A program made the translations under genes and the position numbers. Below the pieces are notes generated by a model. The model saw nothing but the letters and a program-made list of their open reading frames with translations. It ran no database searches and was not told the DNA's origin. A DNA stretch of 42,960 nt, from the IMG/VR virus record IMGVR_UViG_3300025825_000008. One strand, written 5' to 3'. This stretch comes from a virus. Shown here piece after piece: positions 25,117 to 40,603 of this stretch. Position 1 is the first letter of the stretch; each line of letters begins with the position of its first letter.

Positions 25117-25977
25117 TTATAGTGCTACTTCTAACTTTTCTTCTTCATCAAAGTCAATAAAACCATCTGGGTATTCTTCAAACGCATGAAGTTTTTCTGT
25201 ATATATTCTTGTAAAGTTTAACGGTACATTTTTAACCATCTCAACAAGCGCTCTTTGCTCTAAGAAATAACCCATATAATCTGCGCCTATAACTTTTTTA
25301 TATGTATCAAGAGCATCACTTAAAGCAGATTCTGCTTTAGTTATGTGGGCCTCAGCTGTTTTAATACCAAATCTAGGTAAACCAGGAATGTTATCACTAG
25401 TATCACCCATCAATACTTGACGATATAAAGTTATTTCAGCATCTTCAGGTGTAACCTCAATCCATTCTTCTTTTACATAGTTATAATGTAAACCAGGTAT
25501 TTGTAGTATGTCCTTATCTATGCCGCAATGAATAGATTCATAAAAAGTCATATCAGTAGCTATAGCGTCATCAGCTTCATAACCATCAACAACTATAGCA
25601 TTTTTATGCTCAATCAAATAGTCATAAATATGGTTTAAAAATTGAGGACGTTTCATATTAGCTCTATTACCTTTATAAGGTTTAGTTTTAGCTATATCAT
25701 ATCTAAAGTTCTGCTTTTTAGCAGGATATTTAGTTCCATCGGATTTACCAGATAAATAAATACGCATTTTATTTACACCTGTATTCTCCATAATTTGCGA
25801 TATAGTTGTATTAACTATATCGTAACCTGCGCCTTCCCAATGGTCTTCAACTACACAAGCTGTTCTATAGGCGATAATATCACCGTCAACAGCTAATATA
25901 GCTTTATCTCCAAGGTCTTCAACTTGTTTTTTAATCCTTAGTTGTTTAATAGTGTCCATAATTTTACTCTTGGTCAT
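25117..25977 (-). CDS. 5'-3' exonuclease / flap endonuclease (FEN, PIN-like + H3TH)
   Basis: 286 aa. AVDGDIIAYR, GYEADDAIA and LMGDTSDNIPGLPRFGIKTA (H3TH). An alternative start at Met7 (25959) would remove the 14-nt overlap. Confidence 0.85.
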   Translation of the reverse strand: MTKSKIMDTIKQLRIKKQVEDLGDKAILAVDGDIIAYRTACVVEDHWEGAGYDIVNTTISQIMENTGVNKMRIYLSGKSDGTKYPAKKQNFRYDIAKTKPYKGNRANMKRPQFLNHIYDYLIEHKNAIVVDGYEADDAIATDMTFYESIHCGIDKDILQIPGLHYNYVKEEWIEVTPEDAEITLYRQVLMGDTSDNIPGLPRFGIKTAEAHITKAESALSDALDTYKKVIGADYMGYFLEQRALVEMVKNVPLNFTRIYTEKLHAFEEYPDGFIDFDEEEKLEVAL

Positions 25978-26674
25978 TAAGTTTAATTTTAGGTAAATGT
26001 TTTAGTTCAATTAAAAAAGATACGTTAGCTGCCATATGGTCAAGATGATTTAACCTAGATTCAGGGTCATTATCTTCACCACTACGCCAAGCGTCAAAGT
26101 GACGTTGTAGCGCATTAATATAACATTCTATATTATCAGTTTTACGCCAATTATTTGGCTTATACTTTTTAGCCCCATAGGTTAAAGCGCGTGCTGCTGC
26201 TAAACCTAATGAAGGAGGTACTAAAGTCATACGAGGTTTTTCTTTATCAAATTTCATAAAGCTCTCAACAACTTCAAAAGATATATTATGCTCTTCTAAC
26301 TCTTTTTTGCAGCTATCACAAGGATAATGAGAAATATACATTTTTAGCTCTGAGTAATTTCTATACTTTTTTTCTTTATGTAATAAATTATTTATACAAT
26401 GTATTTCAGCATGAATAACTTCAGCTTTTGTTGTACCGTCAGGTAACTCACATATTTCACCATCAGTGTGATTATTCCAACCAGAAGCAAACTCTATAAA
26501 ATCTGTGGGTGTTTCTTGAACTATTATTGCACCAACTTTACGCTTTTTACATGGTGATTTATTAGCAACCTCAATAACACGTTTACTAATCTTTTTTAAC
26601 CTTTCTTGTCTTTTATAATATTCTTTTTTCATTTTAATTTCCTTTGATAGTTGAATTTCAACAGGTGCAAACAT
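25964..26674 (-). CDS. dCMP/cytidine deaminase domain fused to a DUF5664-like (MazG-associated) C-terminal domain
   Basis: Zinc deaminase motifs VIHAEIHC and HYPCDSCKK. The C-terminal ~95 aa is KPRMTLVPPSLGLAAARALTYGAKKY..NW...RHFDAWRSGEDNDPESRLNHLDHMAANVSFL. Met15 (RBS AAGGAA) is an alternative start. Confidence 0.7.
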   Translation of the reverse strand: MFAPVEIQLSKEIKMKKEYYKRQERLKKISKRVIEVANKSPCKKRKVGAIIVQETPTDFIEFASGWNNHTDGEICELPDGTTKAEVIHAEIHCINNLLHKEKKYRNYSELKMYISHYPCDSCKKELEEHNISFEVVESFMKFDKEKPRMTLVPPSLGLAAARALTYGAKKYKPNNWRKTDNIECYINALQRHFDAWRSGEDNDPESRLNHLDHMAANVSFLIELKHLPKIKLNDQE

Positions 26675-27249
26675 TAAGCTAAACCTTTTACTTGATAAAA
26701 TAGCGACTCTAAATCTTCAGTAGGAGCCTTATAATTTGCACCTTTATTAATATTAGCTTTTATATCCGGTAAAACTTTTTCAATTGCTTTAGTATCATTA
26801 CTATCGCATATTATTCTTAACACTACAAGATAATAAGAAAACATATCTAAATCTTTTAAAGCTTCAACGCAAGAAATACATATTAAATGTGCTATTTTTC
26901 TTAGTATAATTATCTCATAATCTAGTTTAGAATAATCGGCTATATCAACATAACTAGATAATAAAGAAGCTTGAAATATATCTACATTAGGTTTTTTGTG
27001 TTTACTTATATGTTTTTCAAATAAACTTTCAATATATTCAGGAGAATAGCCTAATTTCCATAATATGCCTATAGCTACAAAAGTAATGTCTCCAACAGCG
27101 TCTAGTGTTTCTATAGGGTTACCTATTATTCGAGCGTTTTCTAACTCTCCGGCTTCTTCAACTAATAAAGCATTAGCTAAACCAAAATTAAAAATACGTT
27201 CATAGCGCTTTTCATTCCAATTTATTACTCTTTCAAAAACTGAAGTCAT
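26674..27249 (-). CDS. All-alpha MazG/dimeric-dUTPase-type nucleoside triphosphate pyrophosphohydrolase
   Basis: 191 aa. Metal-binding helices LLVEEAGELENA (EExxE) and LDAVGDITFVAI (DxxD). RBS AAGGA. Confidence 0.6.
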   Translation of the reverse strand: MTSVFERVINWNEKRYERIFNFGLANALLVEEAGELENARIIGNPIETLDAVGDITFVAIGILWKLGYSPEYIESLFEKHISKHKKPNVDIFQASLLSSYVDIADYSKLDYEIIILRKIAHLICISCVEALKDLDMFSYYLVVLRIICDSNDTKAIEKVLPDIKANINKGANYKAPTEDLESLFYQVKGLA

Positions 27250-27259
27250 TTTTTAATCC

Positions 27260-28141
27260 TTATACATTTAATTCAAATTTAATTACAGGACCTGAAATAT
27301 AGTTATTAATGTTTAACATTTCAGGTTTAAAGTTAAATACTGTTGCGTCTTTATCTATACTATAAGAAGGTGCGTCAGGAAAACGCAAATTAGGGTAATC
27401 ACTTAATGTTGTGTTTAAAAATATATCTACTTGAGGCAGATGATTTTCATATATATGAGTATCACCTAATATCATAGTTATGTTTCCAGAAGTAAAACCA
27501 CATTGATTAGCTAATATAATATTCCAAGCAGCAGCTAAAATAATATCACTAGGTAAACCTACCATAGTATCAACACTACGCTGATACCATATCATATCTA
27601 AAAATGTTACCTCTTTTTCATTAACAATTTCAGTTCTTGTATACCACTGATACAATAAATGGCAACAAGGTAAAGATAGCTCATCTAATCTATCTGGGCG
27701 CCAAGCAGATATAATCATTCTTCTGTTATTAGGGTTAGTTTGTAATGTATTAATTAATTCTTTTAATTGATTATAGCCGTTAAAGTCTAACCAAGCATTA
27801 CCGTAATCTAAGTTTAACTCTCCTCCTTTAGCTTGCTCTTCATCGTATAAACAACCCTCTTTTTCTGCCCCCCAAGCATCCCAATAATTGCAACCATATT
27901 GTTTAAAGTCATTTATATGCTTGGGACCTTTTAGCATAGCAGCTAATTCACCAATAACAGGCTTATAGAACATTTTTCTACTTCTTATTAAAGGAAATGT
28001 TTTACTTGTATCAAAAGCTAAAGTTTTACCAAACAAAGAAATAGTAGCGCCATTACGAGTTTCTTTTTTTAGCCCTTCAGCTAATATTTCTCTTATTAAA
28101 GACTTATAACTCCATTCTATATCTAAAAGGTCCTTAGGCAT
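27260..28141 (-). CDS. Thymidylate-synthase-family enzyme with Asn177->Asp: predicted deoxycytidylate C5-methyl/hydroxymethyl-transferase
   Basis: 293 aa. TRNG, VIGELAAML, YWDAWG, NRRMIISAWR, LPCCH, YQRSVD and GDTHIY align to the ThyA catalytic motifs. GLPSDII replaces ThyA GLPFNIA, placing an Asp exactly 11 residues after the YQR arginine. Confidence 0.7.
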   Translation of the reverse strand: MPKDLLDIEWSYKSLIREILAEGLKKETRNGATISLFGKTLAFDTSKTFPLIRSRKMFYKPVIGELAAMLKGPKHINDFKQYGCNYWDAWGAEKEGCLYDEEQAKGGELNLDYGNAWLDFNGYNQLKELINTLQTNPNNRRMIISAWRPDRLDELSLPCCHLLYQWYTRTEIVNEKEVTFLDMIWYQRSVDTMVGLPSDIILAAAWNIILANQCGFTSGNITMILGDTHIYENHLPQVDIFLNTTLSDYPNLRFPDAPSYSIDKDATVFNFKPEMLNINNYISGPVIKFELNV

Positions 28142-28142
28142 A

Positions 28143-28580
28143 CTAATCCTTTCTTAAAGCTAAGTTTTTCGCAGTATAAATATGTATAACTCCTCTGTCA
28201 TCTTCAACAGCATAACGTTGTAAGCCAGATAATTTAGTAAAAGTACCGATGACAATTCCAGAAAAAGTATAATCTCCTGTTATTTTTTTAACTTTAGTTC
28301 CAATAGGAAAAGTAAACTCTTTAGGTTTTACGGATTTATTTTTTTCCTGTACACATGTGCGTTTACTTCTTATTGTTTTAAGATTGTTTAAGTGCTTATC
28401 ATAAAAAGCAGTTGCTCTTTGACTTTCTTGTATAAATTGTTTTTCATATTTTACGACGTTAGATTTTTCTTCTTCTAACATCTTTATAGTGTCATTTAAA
28501 TACTTATCATCAGCATTTTCAAAATCTATATTATCTGCTATTGCGTCACCAATAGCTAAAAACATTTTAAAATCATTCAT
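28143..28580 (-). CDS. Hypothetical protein (145 aa; start moved to internal Met)
   Basis: The track ORF (to 28718) reads through a tRNA-like element. Met47 (ATG 28580) has a strong RBS, AAAGGAAAGGA. The C-terminal KVKKITGDYTFSGIVIGTF...YAVEDDRGVIHIY looks SH3/Tudor-like. Confidence 0.5.
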   Translation of the reverse strand: MNDFKMFLAIGDAIADNIDFENADDKYLNDTIKMLEEEKSNVVKYEKQFIQESQRATAFYDKHLNNLKTIRSKRTCVQEKNKSVKPKEFTFPIGTKVKKITGDYTFSGIVIGTFTKLSGLQRYAVEDDRGVIHIYTAKNLALRKD

Positions 28581-28616
28581 TTTATTTTCCTTTCCTTTAA
28601 TTAAGTTAAAAAAGCG

Positions 28617-28682
28617 GGATAACGGGGAGATTTGAACTCCCATAACATTGCGCAATGTACCTAACCATTCAGTCACGTCATC
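28617..28682 (-). ncRNA. tRNA-like element (acceptor stem + canonical T arm; anticodon arm replaced by a 14-nt palindromic hairpin)
   Basis: Minus strand: GATGACG TG ACTG AATGGTT AGGT ACATT GCGC AATGT TAT GGGAG TTCAAAT CTCCC CGTTATC C, followed by GCTTTTTT. 66 nt, too short for a decoding tRNA. Confidence 0.45.
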
Positions 28683-28701
28683 CCTAACCTGCGCAGGTAT
28701 T

Positions 28702-30408
28702 TTATTGGTTATACTCATAAATAAATGTACCAGATTCTATATCTCCCCAATTCCAACCAACTCGTATATTTACTGGCATTGGTAAATCAGTAATAGTTAC
28801 AGATTGACACATTTGTTGCCAAGCATCTTGCATAGCATCAGCTATAATTTTAGAGGCAGGCATATAAACAGCGTCATTATTAGGCGCAGTAAATATATAA
28901 TTATCATGCACAAAATTACGAAGTTGAATATCTTTACTAATTTCTTTAAGTTTTGGAAGCATATAGTGCATAGCTAGTTTAGCCACCTCAGCTTCAAAAC
29001 CTTGTATTTGCATAGCTAATTGGTCTGTCATCAGTTTAGCAGTATAACGTCTACCCAATGGAGTTTGCCATGGTTTTTTACTCCTCCAATCTTTAATTCC
29101 TAGTTGTTGCCAATTGTCAATAGCTATCCAAAGAGTCAACCAATCTTTAATAAATTGTTTGCCATCTTTTTCATCTAAAAATAAATCAGCTGATTTAATA
29201 AGAATATTTAAGAATACACCTAAACCAGCGCCAAACAATAAACCAAAATTAGCCGTTTTACATATTTGACGTTGCTCAGGCATAAAGTTTTTACCAAAAA
29301 TCATTTCTGCAACATAATTATGTAAATCTTCACCAGCTCTAAACAACTCCTCCATTTTTTTATCTCCCGTTTTTGCACAAACACATCTTAGCTGCATTTG
29401 AGAAAAATCAGAATAAATAAGAATAGTATCACCATTTTCAGGTACACCAAATAAACTTTTTAAACTACGGGGTAATTGTTGTAAATTTTGGTCATCTGAA
29501 GTTGTTCTACCTGAACGAGCAGAGCACTTAAATTTACCGTACAGTAAGCCAAAATTATCGTCTTCAGGGCAAGGCTCTATACTAGAATATTCTGCCATTG
29601 TATTAATAAACTTAGCTAAAAAAGAATTATTTTTAACTAATTTGCGAGTTTCACGAACATTTGCAGCTTTAGTATTACCTTGTAAAGCTAATTTAGCTAA
29701 ACCTAAATCGTCAGAATTTTGTGTGTCTATATAAGCTCTTACTTGTTTATAAGAGTTACAATTAATGGGTAAACCAATTTCATTAATACGAGAATTATTT
29801 TTAATAAATCTTTCTCGTATTTTTTGTCTATTAACAGGCATACCGTTATTCTGAAAGTCTAAGCAATTTCTAGTTGTAAGTATATCTAGTTTATAGCTAA
29901 AATCTTCTTGTTTTACTTTAACTATATCATAAACTTTTTGCAAATAATATACATCAGCTGCAGCATATTGTTTTTGACTTTCAGATAAAACAGGAACACT
30001 CCAATCAGATTTACCTTGCTCATTATCCTCATAAGGCCTTTCACCTGTTACGTAATAAACAACTTCTGTAAAGTTAAACTTTTCTTTTAAGAAAAAGTGT
30101 AGTCTAGCTAAAAGAAAAGTACAATCAAACTTTTCAGGAATCCATTTCTGTTTACCTAAGTTATCCTGAATAGTAGTTATATCATAATGAGCATTATGCA
30201 TTATGATATGTTGTTTAGATAATAAACTAACTAATTCATAAGGTGAAGGATATTCAACAAATATAATAGTTGGCCAATCTTCTTGATAAAATTGAGCTAA
30301 CCTAATTCTACCATAAAAACCTTGTGTTTCTGTATCAAACATTAAAGGTTTATTAGAGTCTATTAAACTTCTAACATCTGCTATAGTACTAAACCGATAA
30401 TCTAACAT
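28702..30408 (-). CDS. Family A DNA polymerase with 3'-5' exonuclease domain
   Basis: 568 aa. Exo I FDTET, Exo II HNAHYD, Exo III YAAADVYY. Pol motif A YSDFSQMQLR, motif B RQICKTANFGLLFGAG, motif C VHDNYIF. Confidence 0.9.
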   Translation of the reverse strand: MLDYRFSTIADVRSLIDSNKPLMFDTETQGFYGRIRLAQFYQEDWPTIIFVEYPSPYELVSLLSKQHIIMHNAHYDITTIQDNLGKQKWIPEKFDCTFLLARLHFFLKEKFNFTEVVYYVTGERPYEDNEQGKSDWSVPVLSESQKQYAAADVYYLQKVYDIVKVKQEDFSYKLDILTTRNCLDFQNNGMPVNRQKIRERFIKNNSRINEIGLPINCNSYKQVRAYIDTQNSDDLGLAKLALQGNTKAANVRETRKLVKNNSFLAKFINTMAEYSSIEPCPEDDNFGLLYGKFKCSARSGRTTSDDQNLQQLPRSLKSLFGVPENGDTILIYSDFSQMQLRCVCAKTGDKKMEELFRAGEDLHNYVAEMIFGKNFMPEQRQICKTANFGLLFGAGLGVFLNILIKSADLFLDEKDGKQFIKDWLTLWIAIDNWQQLGIKDWRSKKPWQTPLGRRYTAKLMTDQLAMQIQGFEAEVAKLAMHYMLPKLKEISKDIQLRNFVHDNYIFTAPNNDAVYMPASKIIADAMQDAWQQMCQSVTITDLPMPVNIRVGWNWGDIESGTFIYEYNQ

Positions 30409-30430: not shown

Positions 30431-30640
30431 TTAACATTTAAAAGTTACGTGATAACCTTTATGTATTTTAACTGCGTTAGGCGCAACTTTGCCATTAAAA
30501 GTAATATCTTTTTTATCATAGGCAAAAACTTTATACAAATAAGCCTTTGCTTTAGGATTAGAAGCTTCATGATTTTTTACTGCTTTATACGCAGATTCAT
30601 AATCTTTAAAAGTTTTACCTATAATAGTGCTATTCATCAT
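30431..30640 (-). CDS. Hypothetical protein (69 aa)
   Basis: ATG lies within the last codons of the upstream gene (ATGATGAATAG). Lys-rich and beta-rich. Confidence 0.5.
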   Translation of the reverse strand: MMNSTIIGKTFKDYESAYKAVKNHEASNPKAKAYLYKVFAYDKKDITFNGKVAPNAVKIHKGYHVTFKC

Positions 30641-31106
30641 ATACTCCCAAGTTTATTTCTTTTGTTTTACCTCCAGTAAAAGCATCATGTAAACTTGATG
30701 CTTTTACCGCATCTATAGCTTCTGCATCTACTGCCATAGCGCCTAAAGCAAAATTTGCTCCTGAGCCAATAGCGTGATATTTATATAAAGATAGTTCCAT
30801 TAATTGTTTATCGCAATCAAAAAACCATAACTTTTTACTACCTAATTTACTTTTAGTAAAAATAATAGCTTTTAAATCATATTCGTTAATTTTTAACTTT
30901 TCTAAATTATTAAGCTGATTTTTAGCTATATGGTTAAGTAATTTTTGCGCTGTAGTTAATCTACCTGCCACTCCTACAATATAAATATTGCCATGGCTAT
31001 CAATTATTTCGTGTATCTTAGTTTCATCAGTTGATATTATTGTATCGCCAACTGATACTAAACCATCTGCAGCAATATGATAGTCTTTATACGCTATTGT
31101 TGTCAT
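30630..31106 (-). CDS. HslV/proteasome-beta-like N-terminal-nucleophile (Ntn) hydrolase
   Basis: 158 aa. Starts MTTIAYKD (E. coli HslV starts MTTIVSVRR). Has IAADG, TKIHEI (Lys33 position), GVAGR (GFAGG) and AIGSGANFALGAM (AIGSGGPYA). Confidence 0.7.
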   Translation of the reverse strand: MTTIAYKDYHIAADGLVSVGDTIISTDETKIHEIIDSHGNIYIVGVAGRLTTAQKLLNHIAKNQLNNLEKLKINEYDLKAIIFTKSKLGSKKLWFFDCDKQLMELSLYKYHAIGSGANFALGAMAVDAEAIDAVKASSLHDAFTGGKTKEINLGVYDE

Positions 31107-34325: not shown

Positions 34326-35642
34326 CTAGTTTGTAAATACTTTATGGCTAGCTCTTGATATAGCCACATATAATAGTTTTAAATACATAGTGTAATCTTT
34401 TTTAGCGCATATAGCTAAGTCTTGAGTATCTATATAAACATGTTCGTAAGTGCTACCTTGTGACTTATGCACAGTCATTGCATGCACAAAGTCTAAACAT
34501 ATAACACAATTTTTAAAACTTAAATAGTTTTTCCATGCTTGATTTCTACTTTTAGCTAAGGGGTTTTGCCAATTTATTTGGGCCCATTTAGTTAATTCTT
34601 TTGCTTCTACACTGTATTTAGCTTTTATTTGATTATTTATAAACACTGCTTTATTAGCTAGGTATGATTGTACCTCAAGATAATTAGCATGGCCAAATAC
34701 AACAGCTCTTATTTCTTCTTCTCCTTTAGCATTTACCAAAGTATAAAATTTAATACCTTCCATTTGATGTAATGTTTCAAGAGTTTTGTGTTTGCTGTCA
34801 ACTTCCAATAGCTTATCATCATACATAAGTATATAAGGCGTAACTGTATCTATACTAATAATAGTATATTTTTCTCTTTTAGTAGGGCTAAATACTTCAT
34901 CACCTAAAATAGGTTCTATTTTACCCTCAATTTCACTATTAAGCTTTTGCACGGTTTTATTTGTATAAGCCAGTATAACTTTTTCCCTATCATCTCTTTT
35001 AAATTCTTTAACTATATCTATATCTCTAATTAGTGTTTCATGAGGTAATAAGGCCTTAGCTTCTTCACCATTAATATAATCATTAAGAGTAAGTAAAGTC
35101 TCCTGTAGCTCATTATCCCCAGATTGTCTATATATTTTAGTTAATTTACACCAAAAAGGTCCTTTAGGTACTATAGCTATCATATCTTTAACAGGTGGTA
35201 GCTGATTAGGGTCACCTATATAAACTACTTTCATAACTAGCTCACCATCTTCATCATATTGTAAGGCAGCTATGTCTACATAATCTCGCTCGCCAACCAT
35301 ACTAAATTCATCTATAAATAATAAAGTAATTTTTTCTGCCCCACCCGTAATGGTGCTACTTTCTACGTGCTGACGGCTAACAGCATTACCATTAACAGTT
35401 GGTCGTTTTGTTAAATAACTATGTAATGTACATATTACAGCTTTTGCAGGTAATTTTTTCCTCAGCACATTACACGCTTTATGAGTAAAAGCACTAACTA
35501 TTGGCTGTATATTGTGTTCTAAACAATGCTTAACTAAAGTTTTTAGCGATGTTGTTTTACCGGTGCCAGCTACACCTGTTATATACATATCAGGTTCATC
35601 CGACTCCAAGAATGCAAAAAACATATCTTCTAATTCACTCAT
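34326..35642 (-). CDS. SF1 RecD/Dda-like DNA helicase
   Basis: Walker A GVAGTGKTT, Walker B LLFIDEFSMVG, and C-terminal MTVHKSQGSTYEHVYID (RecD/Dda motif). Start moved from the track TTG (35672) to the ATG at 35642 (MSELEDMFF), which overlaps the upstream TGA (ATGA). Confidence 0.8.
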   Translation of the reverse strand: MSELEDMFFAFLESDEPDMYITGVAGTGKTTSLKTLVKHCLEHNIQPIVSAFTHKACNVLRKKLPAKAVICTLHSYLTKRPTVNGNAVSRQHVESSTITGGAEKITLLFIDEFSMVGERDYVDIAALQYDEDGELVMKVVYIGDPNQLPPVKDMIAIVPKGPFWCKLTKIYRQSGDNELQETLLTLNDYINGEEAKALLPHETLIRDIDIVKEFKRDDREKVILAYTNKTVQKLNSEIEGKIEPILGDEVFSPTKREKYTIISIDTVTPYILMYDDKLLEVDSKHKTLETLHQMEGIKFYTLVNAKGEEEIRAVVFGHANYLEVQSYLANKAVFINNQIKAKYSVEAKELTKWAQINWQNPLAKSRNQAWKNYLSFKNCVICLDFVHAMTVHKSQGSTYEHVYIDTQDLAICAKKDYTMYLKLLYVAISRASHKVFTN

Positions 35643-35998
35643 TTTGGTACCCCTTGCGTTTGTAATTTCCAAGTAGCTTTAATTTTAATCGTTAAAGCTT
35701 CTAATTGTGCTTTAAATTCAGGCGCATCATGTTTTATACGCTCTTCAATATTATTAATAGCATTAATAATTGTTCTATTAAAAGCATAAGCAATTTGAGT
35801 TAATGAATTATATGTTAATTCATTACATAAGTACATAGTTATATGCCTATAGTGTACAATTTTAGCTTTTCTAGATTTATGCTTTAAATCTTCCACACTA
35901 AAACCATACTCAAAAGCAACTATTCTTTGAATATGTGACATTTTTATAGCTTCAGTTTTTCCTAACTTTTTACTAATTTGTGTTATTGGTTCACTCAT
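35639..35998 (-). CDS. DnaA domain IV-like (DnaA C-terminal HTH) DNA-binding protein
   Basis: 119 aa. HIQRIVAFEYGFSVEDLKHKSRKAKIVHYRHITMYLCNELTYNSLTQIAYAFNRTIINAINNIEERI aligns to E. coli DnaA [70 protein letters not shown]. The DHTTV loop is shortened. Confidence 0.7.
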   Translation of the reverse strand: MSEPITQISKKLGKTEAIKMSHIQRIVAFEYGFSVEDLKHKSRKAKIVHYRHITMYLCNELTYNSLTQIAYAFNRTIINAINNIEERIKHDAPEFKAQLEALTIKIKATWKLQTQGVPK

Positions 35999-40052: not shown

Positions 40053-40209
40053 ATTTAACCTCAACTAATTCTGCGTCAATCCCAGCGCTTTTTAAATCAG
40101 CTTTACAGAATTCAGCCGTACTTTTGTTGGCGAATGGAATTTCAACATTTTTATTGTGAACTATGTACTTTAATATATAGTAATATTCATGTTTCTTATT
40201 TGTCGGCAT
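40045..40209 (-). CDS. Hypothetical protein (54 aa; start uncertain)
   Basis: The track uses a GTG at 40251, which overlaps denV by 56 nt. The ATG at 40209 (MPTNKKHEYYY...) has a G-rich RBS and only a 14-nt overlap. Confidence 0.45.
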   Translation of the reverse strand: MPTNKKHEYYYILKYIVHNKNVEIPFANKSTAEFCKADLKSAGIDAELVEVKYE

Positions 40210-40603
40210 TGCGGGCCCCCATTTCAGCCAATCGTATATTGATACGCTCACGATTGATATGTTTATCTAATTCGCTAGGCGTCCAATTATTCCAATATGT
40301 AGCAAATATAGCATCGTCGATACATTTATTACGATGCTCTTTATGACAATTAGCTAGGTTTGTTGTCATACCTCGCTTTTGCATCTCATTGCATAACTGG
40401 ATATGCCTTATAGCTAAATATCCTAATTTATCATAAAAGAATTTAACATGGCCTGCGCCCATAGTATAGCTATGCACAGTTTGTTTATAACCCCGCAAAT
40501 AAGCGTTATAAGCAAGTGTAAATACTCGCGGTAGCTCGCGGTATTCAGCAAGTAAATGCTTATCATGTAACTCATTTGGCGGAATGCAATTAATTCTAGT
40601 CAT
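40196..40603 (-). CDS. denV: Pyrimidine-dimer DNA glycosylase (T4 endonuclease V family)
   Basis: 135 aa. [28 protein letters not shown]...[15 protein letters not shown] versus T4 DenV [28 protein letters not shown]...GAGHVTFFYDKLEFL. The N-terminal Thr2 and Glu23 are conserved. Confidence 0.9.
   Translation of the reverse strand: [135 protein letters not shown]

Follow-up and report, generated by a model that had tools for sequence, protein, structure and literature searches.

The window considered here is a stretch of 42,960 nucleotides from IMG/VR virus record IMGVR_UViG_3300025825_000008, and the gene in question is an open reading frame (ORF) on its minus strand, at 27260..28141, which starts with ATG and encodes a full-length thymidylate synthase (TS) homologue of 293 residues. 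On balance, and as far as its sequence can tell, this gene probably does not encode a conventional TS. Instead, it is best read as a folate-dependent C5-methyltransferase acting on deoxycytidine monophosphate (dCMP), that is, a 5-methyl-dCMP synthase, within a phage operon for nucleotide conversion whose predicted activities would lead to DNA containing 5-methylcytosine (5mC).

A thymidylate synthase homologue with Asp at position 177

Family profiles, active-site residues and the modelled fold all place the homologue in the ThyA superfamily. PF00303 (Thymidylat_synt) matches it with E = 7.6e-64 and 215.9 bits (cut-off 24.3), covering positions 2-265 of the 266 in the profile; TIGR03284 gives 170.5 bits, above its trusted cut-off of 108.35; and PHROG 160 matches at 5e-79. 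Among solved structures, the best match by sequence is T4 Td (PDB 1TIS; HMMER, E = 3.9e-43), and in this alignment the segment YQRSVDTMVGLPSDII of the homologue faces YQRSVDVFLGLPFNIA of T4 Td, free of gaps. An AlphaFold2 model (mean predicted local distance difference test score, pLDDT, 90.9; predicted template modelling score, pTM, 0.90) served as the query for a Foldseek search of the PDB, where the top 50 matches were all canonical TS, with E values of about 1e-25 and TM-scores of about 0.75-0.91. As modelled, the predicted fold is that of canonical TS.

The active site was read from a MAFFT alignment of the homologue with E. coli ThyA, the TS of phage Xp12, T4 gp42 and four phage relatives; 20 positions of the E. 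coli reference were checked against the numbering of the literature, which is used below for aligned positions. The corresponding residues of the homologue are R21, E58, W80, W83, Y94, R126 and R127, followed by S142, L143, P144, C145, C146 and H147, and then by Q165, R166, S167, V168, D169, G173, S176, D177, H207 and Y209. In other words, the TS active site is complete, with the catalytic Cys146, the four phosphate-binding Arg (Arg21, Arg126′, Arg127′ and Arg166), Glu58, Trp80/83, Tyr94, His147, Asp169 and His207/Tyr209. Across the 120 closest homologues, which represent its clade, Cys146, the four Arg, Glu58, Tyr94, His207 and Tyr209 are invariant, and so are L143, P144, C145, H147, Q165, S167, D169 and G173. 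In the protein's own numbering, the catalytic Cys is Cys160, and arithmetic from the start of the coding sequence puts its codon at 27662..27664 (minus strand), within the motif LPCCH.

This motif has a peculiarity of its own. A second Cys directly before the catalytic one (27662-27667, minus strand) takes the place of Pro145 throughout the 120 clade members, the Asn177 variants described below among them; E. coli ThyA, T4 Td, Xp12 TS and T4 gp42 lack it.

Every ThyA motif that the original prediction had listed is real in the alignment with the E. coli enzyme. Its statement that the ORF aligns without gaps is correct inside the motifs but fails for the protein as a whole, as lineage-specific insertions lie after Trp83 and in a beta-hairpin. 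These two insertions (residues about 92-107 and 167-179) also set the homologue apart from most clade members, which have 264-285 residues. The first is an acidic loop, EKEGCLYDEEQAKGG, and the second extends the beta-hairpin, TRTEIVNEKEVTF; the confidence of the model is lower in both.

The departure from canonical TS that bears on the substrate is found at position 177. In the HMMER alignment (with T4 Td) and the MAFFT alignment (with E. coli ThyA) alike, Asp199 of the homologue, 11 residues past its Arg188, occupies the place of the E. coli Asn177. The earlier claim of an Asp at this distance from the Arg of the YQR motif is thereby confirmed: the curated alignment with ThyA, T4 gp42 and the Xp12 enzyme has Asp, rather than Asn or a gap, at 177, and T4 gp42 does carry an Asp at the aligned position. 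The codon is GAT (27545..27547, minus strand), one G-to-A substitution away from a codon for Asn. In the published diagnostic, residue 177 decides between deoxyuridine monophosphate (dUMP; Asn) and dCMP (Asp) as the substrate. The homologue lacks the Asn177 that is the hallmark of canonical, dUMP-specific TS (EC 2.1.1.45) and has the Asp177 that is the hallmark of dCMP-specific TS homologues.

The presence of Asp177 is not due to chance. It is kept by 114 of the 120 closest homologues, the other six having Asn, and in IMG/VR, where 471 contigs encode a relative, 76 of the 80 loci examined have Asp, three have Asn and one is unresolved. Since Asn is only one transition away, a share of about 95% Asp in the clade points to selection for Asp. 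A neighbour-joining tree, built without bootstrap, places the six Asn177 variants (P0024, P0026, P0028, P0036, P0041 and P0042) in two or three small groups nested among the Asp members. Comparison of the Asn and Asp members of the clade revealed no co-varying column besides 177, and in the two variants whose contigs were examined (P0042 in locus L007 and P0036 in locus L008) the order of the TS, MazG-like and deaminase genes is unchanged. Judging by their sequences, these variants look like natural reversions through a single transition, and the deaminases of their contigs would offer a useful contrast set for specificity towards 5mC or C.

Predicted product and relation to known enzymes

Other residues bear on the product of the reaction. 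In published comparisons, residue 143 correlates with it, a hydrophobic residue going with methyl and Asp or Glu with hydroxymethyl. In the ternary complex of T4 dCMP hydroxymethylase (dCH, or gp42), the C-terminal TS tail is absent, Val stands for Trp83, and Asp145, the equivalent of Leu143, activates the water that serves as substrate; the site of TS is closed off for hydride transfer by the tail together with Trp83 and Leu143. The substitution D169N is the mark of flavin-dependent 5-hydroxy-dCMP synthases (Lee et al., NAR 2026, PMC13326640).

The homologue has a hydride-transfer apparatus of the TS type, as Leu143, Trp83, Asp169 and the folate-sealing C-terminal tail are all present. The tail, IKFELNV, is as long as IKAPVAI in E. 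coli and is conserved across the clade. According to a published list for E. coli ThyA, 12 residues lie within 6 Å of C5; nine of these are identical in the homologue, the differences being A142S, C168V and N177D. By this comparison, N177D is the sole change of known functional meaning, which would make the protein, in effect, a natural N177D thymidylate synthase. None of the gp42-type features (an acidic residue at 143, Val at Trp83, a missing tail) was found, and neither was the Asn169 of the flavin type, Asp169 being invariant in the clade. Because Leu143, Trp83, His147, Asp169 and a TS-type tail are kept, while the signatures of hydroxymethylases and 5-hydroxy-dCMP synthases are absent, the predicted product is 5-methyl-dCMP (5mdCMP). 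The original prediction had held that the sequence cannot separate methyl from hydroxymethyl; this is right insofar as Asp alone is insufficient, but Leu143, Trp83, Asp169 and the tail do separate the two in part, in favor of 5mdCMP. Two further candidates were tried and rejected: a 5-hydroxy-dCMP synthase, given that Asp169 is kept, and a CMP-specific enzyme of the MilA kind, given that His207 and Tyr209, which read the deoxyribose, are kept.

Sequence searches with blastp gave E values of 1.9e-41 for E. coli ThyA, 4e-14 for Xp12 TS (25% identity) and 5e-7 for T4 gp42. As the homologue is far nearer to canonical TS than to the Xp12 and gp42 enzymes, its switch from Asn to Asp was probably independent; that is, the lineage probably stems from canonical TS and made the change separately from those of Xp12 and T4 gp42. 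Among the known enzymes compared, canonical ThyA and T4 Td are the closest to it in sequence and in predicted structure, with the catalytic residues and the C-terminal tail in common, and differ from it in having Asn177. A functional parallel comes from engineered enzymes: the N177D mutant of E. coli ThyA and the N229D mutant of L. casei TS are reported to methylate dCMP, with their preference switched (Hardy & Nalivaika 1992; Liu & Santi 1992). They likewise have a canonical TS scaffold in which Asn to Asp is the sole functionally significant change, but they are laboratory mutants, whereas the homologue belongs to a natural, conserved lineage with the clade-specific changes P145C, F176S and C168V.

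Other comparisons concern phage enzymes that act on dCMP. The 5-methyl-dCMP synthase of Xp12 (QNN97214.1) is a verified producer of 5mdCMP, in a phage with complete replacement of C by 5mC, and it resembles the homologue in its Asp177 and in the dCMP-type deaminase that adjoins it. By contrast, it has an Asn143, Pro147 and Leu165 of its own as well as a different C-terminus, and its neighbors are DHFR and a HAD hydrolase instead of MazG and PolA. T4 gp42 has the same fold family, the equivalent Asp179 and dCMP as its substrate, but none of its Asp145 (for Leu143), Val85 (for Trp83) and Thr (for His147) is present in the homologue. The 5-hydroxy-dCMP synthases RB69 gp48 and DLP3 gp80 are also TS homologues with N177D that act on dCMP (PMC13326640), although they have D169N and L143E and use flavin, whereas the homologue keeps Asp169 and Leu143.

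Gene neighborhood, proposed pathway and alternatives

The gene lies in a tightly packed string on the minus strand, with overlaps or gaps of at most about 10 nt. In the order of transcription, this string consists of a family A DNA polymerase with a 3′-5′ exonuclease (PolA), a 191-residue ORF, the TS homologue, a MazG-like pyrophosphatase and a deaminase fused to PF18909, and then a FEN-like nuclease, a helicase and a ligase. PolA (28702..30408, minus strand) was recognized by PF00476 (1.1e-34) and PF01612 (8.9e-12). The 191-residue ORF (28143..28718, minus strand) has no Pfam or PHROG match, shares 17 nt with PolA and stops 1 nt ahead of the TS start. Its start varies in the gene calls of other assemblies, giving 145, 177 or 191 residues, and relatives have at this place either an Rv2179c-like exonuclease or no gene.

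Directly downstream of the TS homologue, at 26674..27249 (minus strand), is a MazG-like, all-alpha nucleoside triphosphate pyrophosphohydrolase of 191 residues. The match to PRA-PH (PF01503) is borderline (21.9 bits against a cut-off of 21.3), that to PHROG 671 has E = 3e-11, and the metal-binding motifs EExxE and DxxGD are conserved. A fold search with its AlphaFold2 model (pLDDT 82.6) gave as the best, though weak, match the phage dimeric dUTPases 5MYD/5MYF (probability 0.98, E = 0.14, TM about 0.5), with MazG proteins next, while the search of PDB by sequence gave spurious matches only. This protein would act as a dCTPase and/or dUTPase, supplying dCMP and clearing dCTP. The next ORF (25964-26674, 236 residues) contains, in residues 26-131, a zinc deaminase domain of the dCMP/cytidine type (26282..26599, minus strand) with intact HAE and PCxxC motifs. 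It matches PF00383 (2.6e-12) and MafB19-deam (2.8e-7), and its nearest PDB entry is the dCMP deaminase of cyanophage S-TIM5 (4P9C, 3e-9); by analogy, it may turn 5-methyl-dC nucleotides into dT nucleotides.

The C-terminal part of the deaminase ORF is a PF18909 (dGTP_diPhyd_N) domain (25997..26254, minus strand; 8.8e-29), also known as the 'dATP/dGTP diphosphohydrolase N-terminal' domain. The same fusion is found in phages KF-1, Amaethon and PH1, which are introduced below. Of the Asn177 contigs, L008 has a weak DUF6378 match at this place and L007 a homologous C-terminal extension that has no Pfam assignment, and MS_034 of phage VPMS1 has a similar C-terminal region without the deaminase motifs.

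The original prediction was thus right about a MazG-like pyrophosphatase and a zinc deaminase as neighbors. It was also right in finding neither a deoxynucleoside monophosphate (dNMP) kinase nor a sugar transferase: among about 55 ORFs scanned, all of about 60 residues or longer, no second TS, ThyX, DHFR, dNMP kinase, glycosyltransferase, DNA methyltransferase, TET or carbamoyltransferase was recognized. For want of another TS or ThyX in that set, the word 'paralogue' that it used is loose, and thymidylate would have to come from the host or from the deamination of 5-methyl-dC (5mdC) nucleotides.

This arrangement has a close published counterpart. Of all Pfam domains, that of TS showed the strongest association with cytosine modification of metavirome contigs (Yang et al., eLife 2021, PMC8670742), and the same work, called MetaGPA, places position 177 among the top differential residues, with Asp in modified contigs, and finds TS together with PRA-PH and dCMP-deaminase domains (PMC8670742). 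In a subsequent study (Yang et al., bioRxiv 2024, 10.1101/2024.12.05.627091), 70% of the deaminase genes in cytosine-modified contigs, compared with 6% of those in unmodified ones, had a TS less than 3 kb away, the top domains co-located with deaminases being Thymidylat_synt, MafB19-deam, PRA-PH, DNA_pol_A and DNA_pol_A_exo1. Five of the seven TS homologues tested there made 5mdCMP in vivo. In addition, the TS-linked deaminases favored 5mC, the best-studied one working on 5-methyl-dCTP (5mdCTP), and the role proposed for them is the supply of dTTP in phages in which C is fully replaced by 5mC, such as Xp12 (10.1101/2024.12.05.627091).

The window reproduces the MetaGPA layout, in which a deaminase lies less than 3 kb from a TS with Asp177 and is accompanied by PRA-PH and DNA_pol_A: the deaminase is about 0.6 kb downstream of the TS homologue, the PRA-PH protein adjoins it and PolA is about 0.6 kb upstream. 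TS(Asp177), PRA-PH, dCMP_cyt_deam_1/MafB19-deam, DNA_pol_A and DNA_pol_A_exo1 are close together in both, and the published residue rule predicts the same product. The sources differ, as the MetaGPA contigs come from coastal seawater or sewage and the phage of the window from groundwater. A search of the supplements of the 2021 paper found no LPCCH or GLPSD string. By analogy, the conversion of dCMP to 5mdCMP is supported by published experiments on the same gene arrangement. Since this gene arrangement is the published one, the finding re-derives a published class; the Asp177 rule and the neighborhood were already in the literature, and conceptually nothing goes beyond the work of Yang et al. 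(2021, 2024) and the Weigele laboratory.

The proposed pathway would begin with the cleavage of dCTP, and perhaps of dUTP, to the monophosphate by the MazG-like pyrophosphatase, which would remove dCTP from the pool. The TS homologue would then convert dCMP and methylene-tetrahydrofolate to 5mdCMP and dihydrofolate by the normal hydride transfer of TS, and host kinases would raise 5mdCMP to 5mdCTP. Part of the 5-methyl-dC nucleotide pool would be turned into dT nucleotides by the adjoining zinc deaminase; with dT supplied in this way, the phage would not need a dUMP-specific TS. Finally, the phage PolA would incorporate 5mdCTP, so that C would be largely or wholly replaced by 5mC, and such DNA would resist most C-sensitive restriction enzymes.

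Several observations weigh against this pathway. Two of the seven TS homologues tested in vivo yielded no 5mdCMP (10.1101/2024.12.05.627091), and the comparison with the five verified metagenomic enzymes covers their domain set and the residue rule. At least one verified enzyme, the partner of mSCD-B5, has reported homologues in Xp12 and PaMx74 and shares their deaminase neighborhood, while the homologue studied here is remote from Xp12 TS, the verified 5mdCMP synthase with which its sequence was compared. The rule for residue 143 is no more than a correlation, given that the verified Xp12 methylase aligns an Asn there, and His147 is invariant in the clade, whereas MetaGPA lists 147 among the positions that distinguish modified from unmodified contigs. 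The weak fold match of the MazG-like protein does not fix its substrate, and no phage dNMP kinase was recognized among the scanned ORFs. Moreover, a dUTPase-like enzyme, a dCMP deaminase and a TS also make up the classical route to dTMP, so that the neighboring genes by themselves cannot tell the two apart. Finally, a literature search gave no report of modified DNA and no enzyme assay for the phages KF-1, VPMS1, Amaethon, PH1 and Kolga, which carry related genes.

In an unlikely alternative, dCMP is methylated but essentially all the resulting 5mdCMP is deaminated to dTMP, as a two-step bypass to thymidylate that leaves ordinary C in the virion DNA. The adjoining, tightly coupled genes for TS(Asp177) and the deaminase would suit such a route, the published deaminases of this kind form dT from 5mdC nucleotides, no phage dNMP kinase was found that would drive 5mdCMP towards the triphosphate, and the dCTPase activity of the MazG-like protein is putative. 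Nevertheless, the contigs in which the module was discovered had been selected for resistance to C5-sensitive restriction or for having no unmodified C, which implies modified DNA. Xp12 is likewise without an annotated dNMP kinase, yet full replacement by 5mC is reported for it, and the best-characterized deaminase acts on the triphosphate, that is, downstream of the formation of 5mdCTP. In addition, VPMS1 and Kolga have TS(Asp177) without a recognizable adjoining deaminase.

It is quite improbable that the homologue is instead a working dUMP-dependent or dual-specificity TS, with the operon serving as the classical dTMP route, in which its dUMP would be supplied by a dCMP deaminase and a dUTPase-like pyrophosphatase. 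Such an enzyme would explain an active site nearly identical to that of canonical TS, a sequence that matches E. coli ThyA and T4 Td far better than any enzyme known to act on dCMP, and the retention of His147. It would also agree with the dimeric dUTPases as the best fold match of the pyrophosphatase and with the six Asn177 variants, which are nested in the clade, keep the synteny in the two contigs examined and show no further consistent substitution. However, about 95% of the members of this very large clade have Asp, even though a single transition separates it from Asn, which suggests selection; the N177D and N229D enzymes are reported to shift their preference to dCMP; and in metaviromes Asp177 is tied to modified DNA.

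A dCMP hydroxymethylase making 5-hydroxymethyl-dCMP, as T4 gp42 does, is highly improbable, for although the two proteins have Asp177 in common and this residue alone leaves the product open, the homologue has Leu143 instead of Asp or Glu, Trp83 instead of Val and a full C-terminal tail where T4 dCH, with its water activated by Asp145, has none, its similarity to gp42 reaches just 5e-7, and the ORFs scanned include no recognizable glycosyltransferase or dNMP kinase.

Cultured relatives and other features of the genome

The Asp177 enzyme is also present in cultured phages. A TS with Asp177 and LPCCH is encoded by Edwardsiella phage KF-1 (AB757800) and its relatives, Dickeya phage Amaethon (MH059635), Vibrio phage VPMS1 (JX880072), Pseudoalteromonas phage PH1 (KX365747) and the SAR11/Pelagibacter phage Kolga (MT375529), as well as by MW202665 and MW202744; the cultured or complete relatives correspond to loci L003-L006 and L015-L017. 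Most of these genomes have the order PolA-TS-pyrophosphatase(-deaminase), Kolga more loosely, and in VPMS1 and Kolga no deaminase is recognizable next to the TS gene. These proteins are annotated as 'thymidylate synthase' and, in one case, as 'pyrimidine hmase'. A review mentions for Amaethon an unexplained gap in GC content, 39.8% compared with about 56% in its host.

Taken together, these observations permit a broader proposal, which is tentative and which the balance of probability somewhat disfavors. In this proposal, a distinct and very large lineage of dCMP methylases (471 IMG/VR contigs) would have arisen straight from canonical TS, independently of the Xp12 and T4 enzymes, and would define cosmopolitan phages of ~40-46 kb with a PolA-TS-MazG-deaminase module. 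KF-1, Amaethon, VPMS1, PH1 and Kolga would have 5mC-substituted genomes that went unnoticed, and a GAT/AAT transition at codon 177 would toggle between modified and unmodified DNA, with the six nested Asn variants as examples.

As KF-1, Amaethon, PH1, VPMS1 and Kolga share the Asp177 enzyme and mostly also the module, the prediction can be tested cheaply in cultured phages. If it is true, a groundwater phage uses 5mC for C, which bears on restriction-based, bisulfite or enzymatic methylation analyses, on sequencing bias, on the evasion of host defences and on the binning of viral genomes. The linked deaminase is a candidate for selectivity towards 5mC, and deaminases of that class are currently of interest to biotechnology. 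The useful outputs of the analysis are a corrected annotation, a test in cultured relatives and a case of natural Asp/Asn toggling inside one syntenic module.

In the public record, the exact TS protein is deposited as PIR06664.1, labelled 'thymidylate synthase' of a metagenome-assembled genome of Candidatus Komeilibacteria, and it recurs across several samples, on 23 or more contigs with lengths of about 42.5-43.2 kb. Samples that contain this contig, from Crystal Geyser or elsewhere, include ERZ27293412 and JGI 3300025142. The genome in the window encodes a terminase, a major head protein, a portal, and internal virion and ejection proteins, and has its replication module on the minus strand; with terminase, portal, major capsid and ejection genes present, the bacterial assignment reflects a mis-binned phage. 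Thus, the label of an ordinary thymidylate synthase from a bacterium of the candidate phyla radiation is probably wrong in both function and organism. The window itself is a complete, podovirus-like phage genome: bases 1-124 are repeated exactly at 42837-42960, leaving a unique length of 42,836 bp, and such an end repeat marks a genome that is either a closed circle or redundant at its termini. In other assemblies, the genome of this phage opens at different points. A megablast search of GenBank phages with half of the window gave no near relative.

Avoidance of restriction sites was also examined. GATC occurs three times in the whole window, where a maximal-order Markov model predicts about 76 occurrences (z = -8.4), and this avoidance may be a trace of a host system of the DpnII/MboI type. 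The 5mC DNA of Xp12 is still cleaved by enzymes against which the cognate protection is N6-adenine methylation (PMC7653180), so the avoidance of GATC is compatible with a 5mC genome. Palindromes that contain C or G are not globally less avoided than those made of A and T only, in what is a small sample. TCGA, CATG and CTAG are mildly depleted in the window.

Some other genes on the minus strand deserve mention. At 41169-41732, leucine-rich repeats (LRR_6, E = 1e-34) take up nearly the whole of a protein of 187 residues, an unusual feature for a small phage genome. The ORF at 30630-31106 has a borderline match to a subunit of the proteasome/HslV type (22.5 bits against a cut-off of 22.4), that at 35639-35998 encodes a small protein with the C-terminal helix-turn-helix domain of DnaA, and the one at 40196-40603 encodes a pyrimidine-dimer DNA glycosylase similar to T4 DenV.

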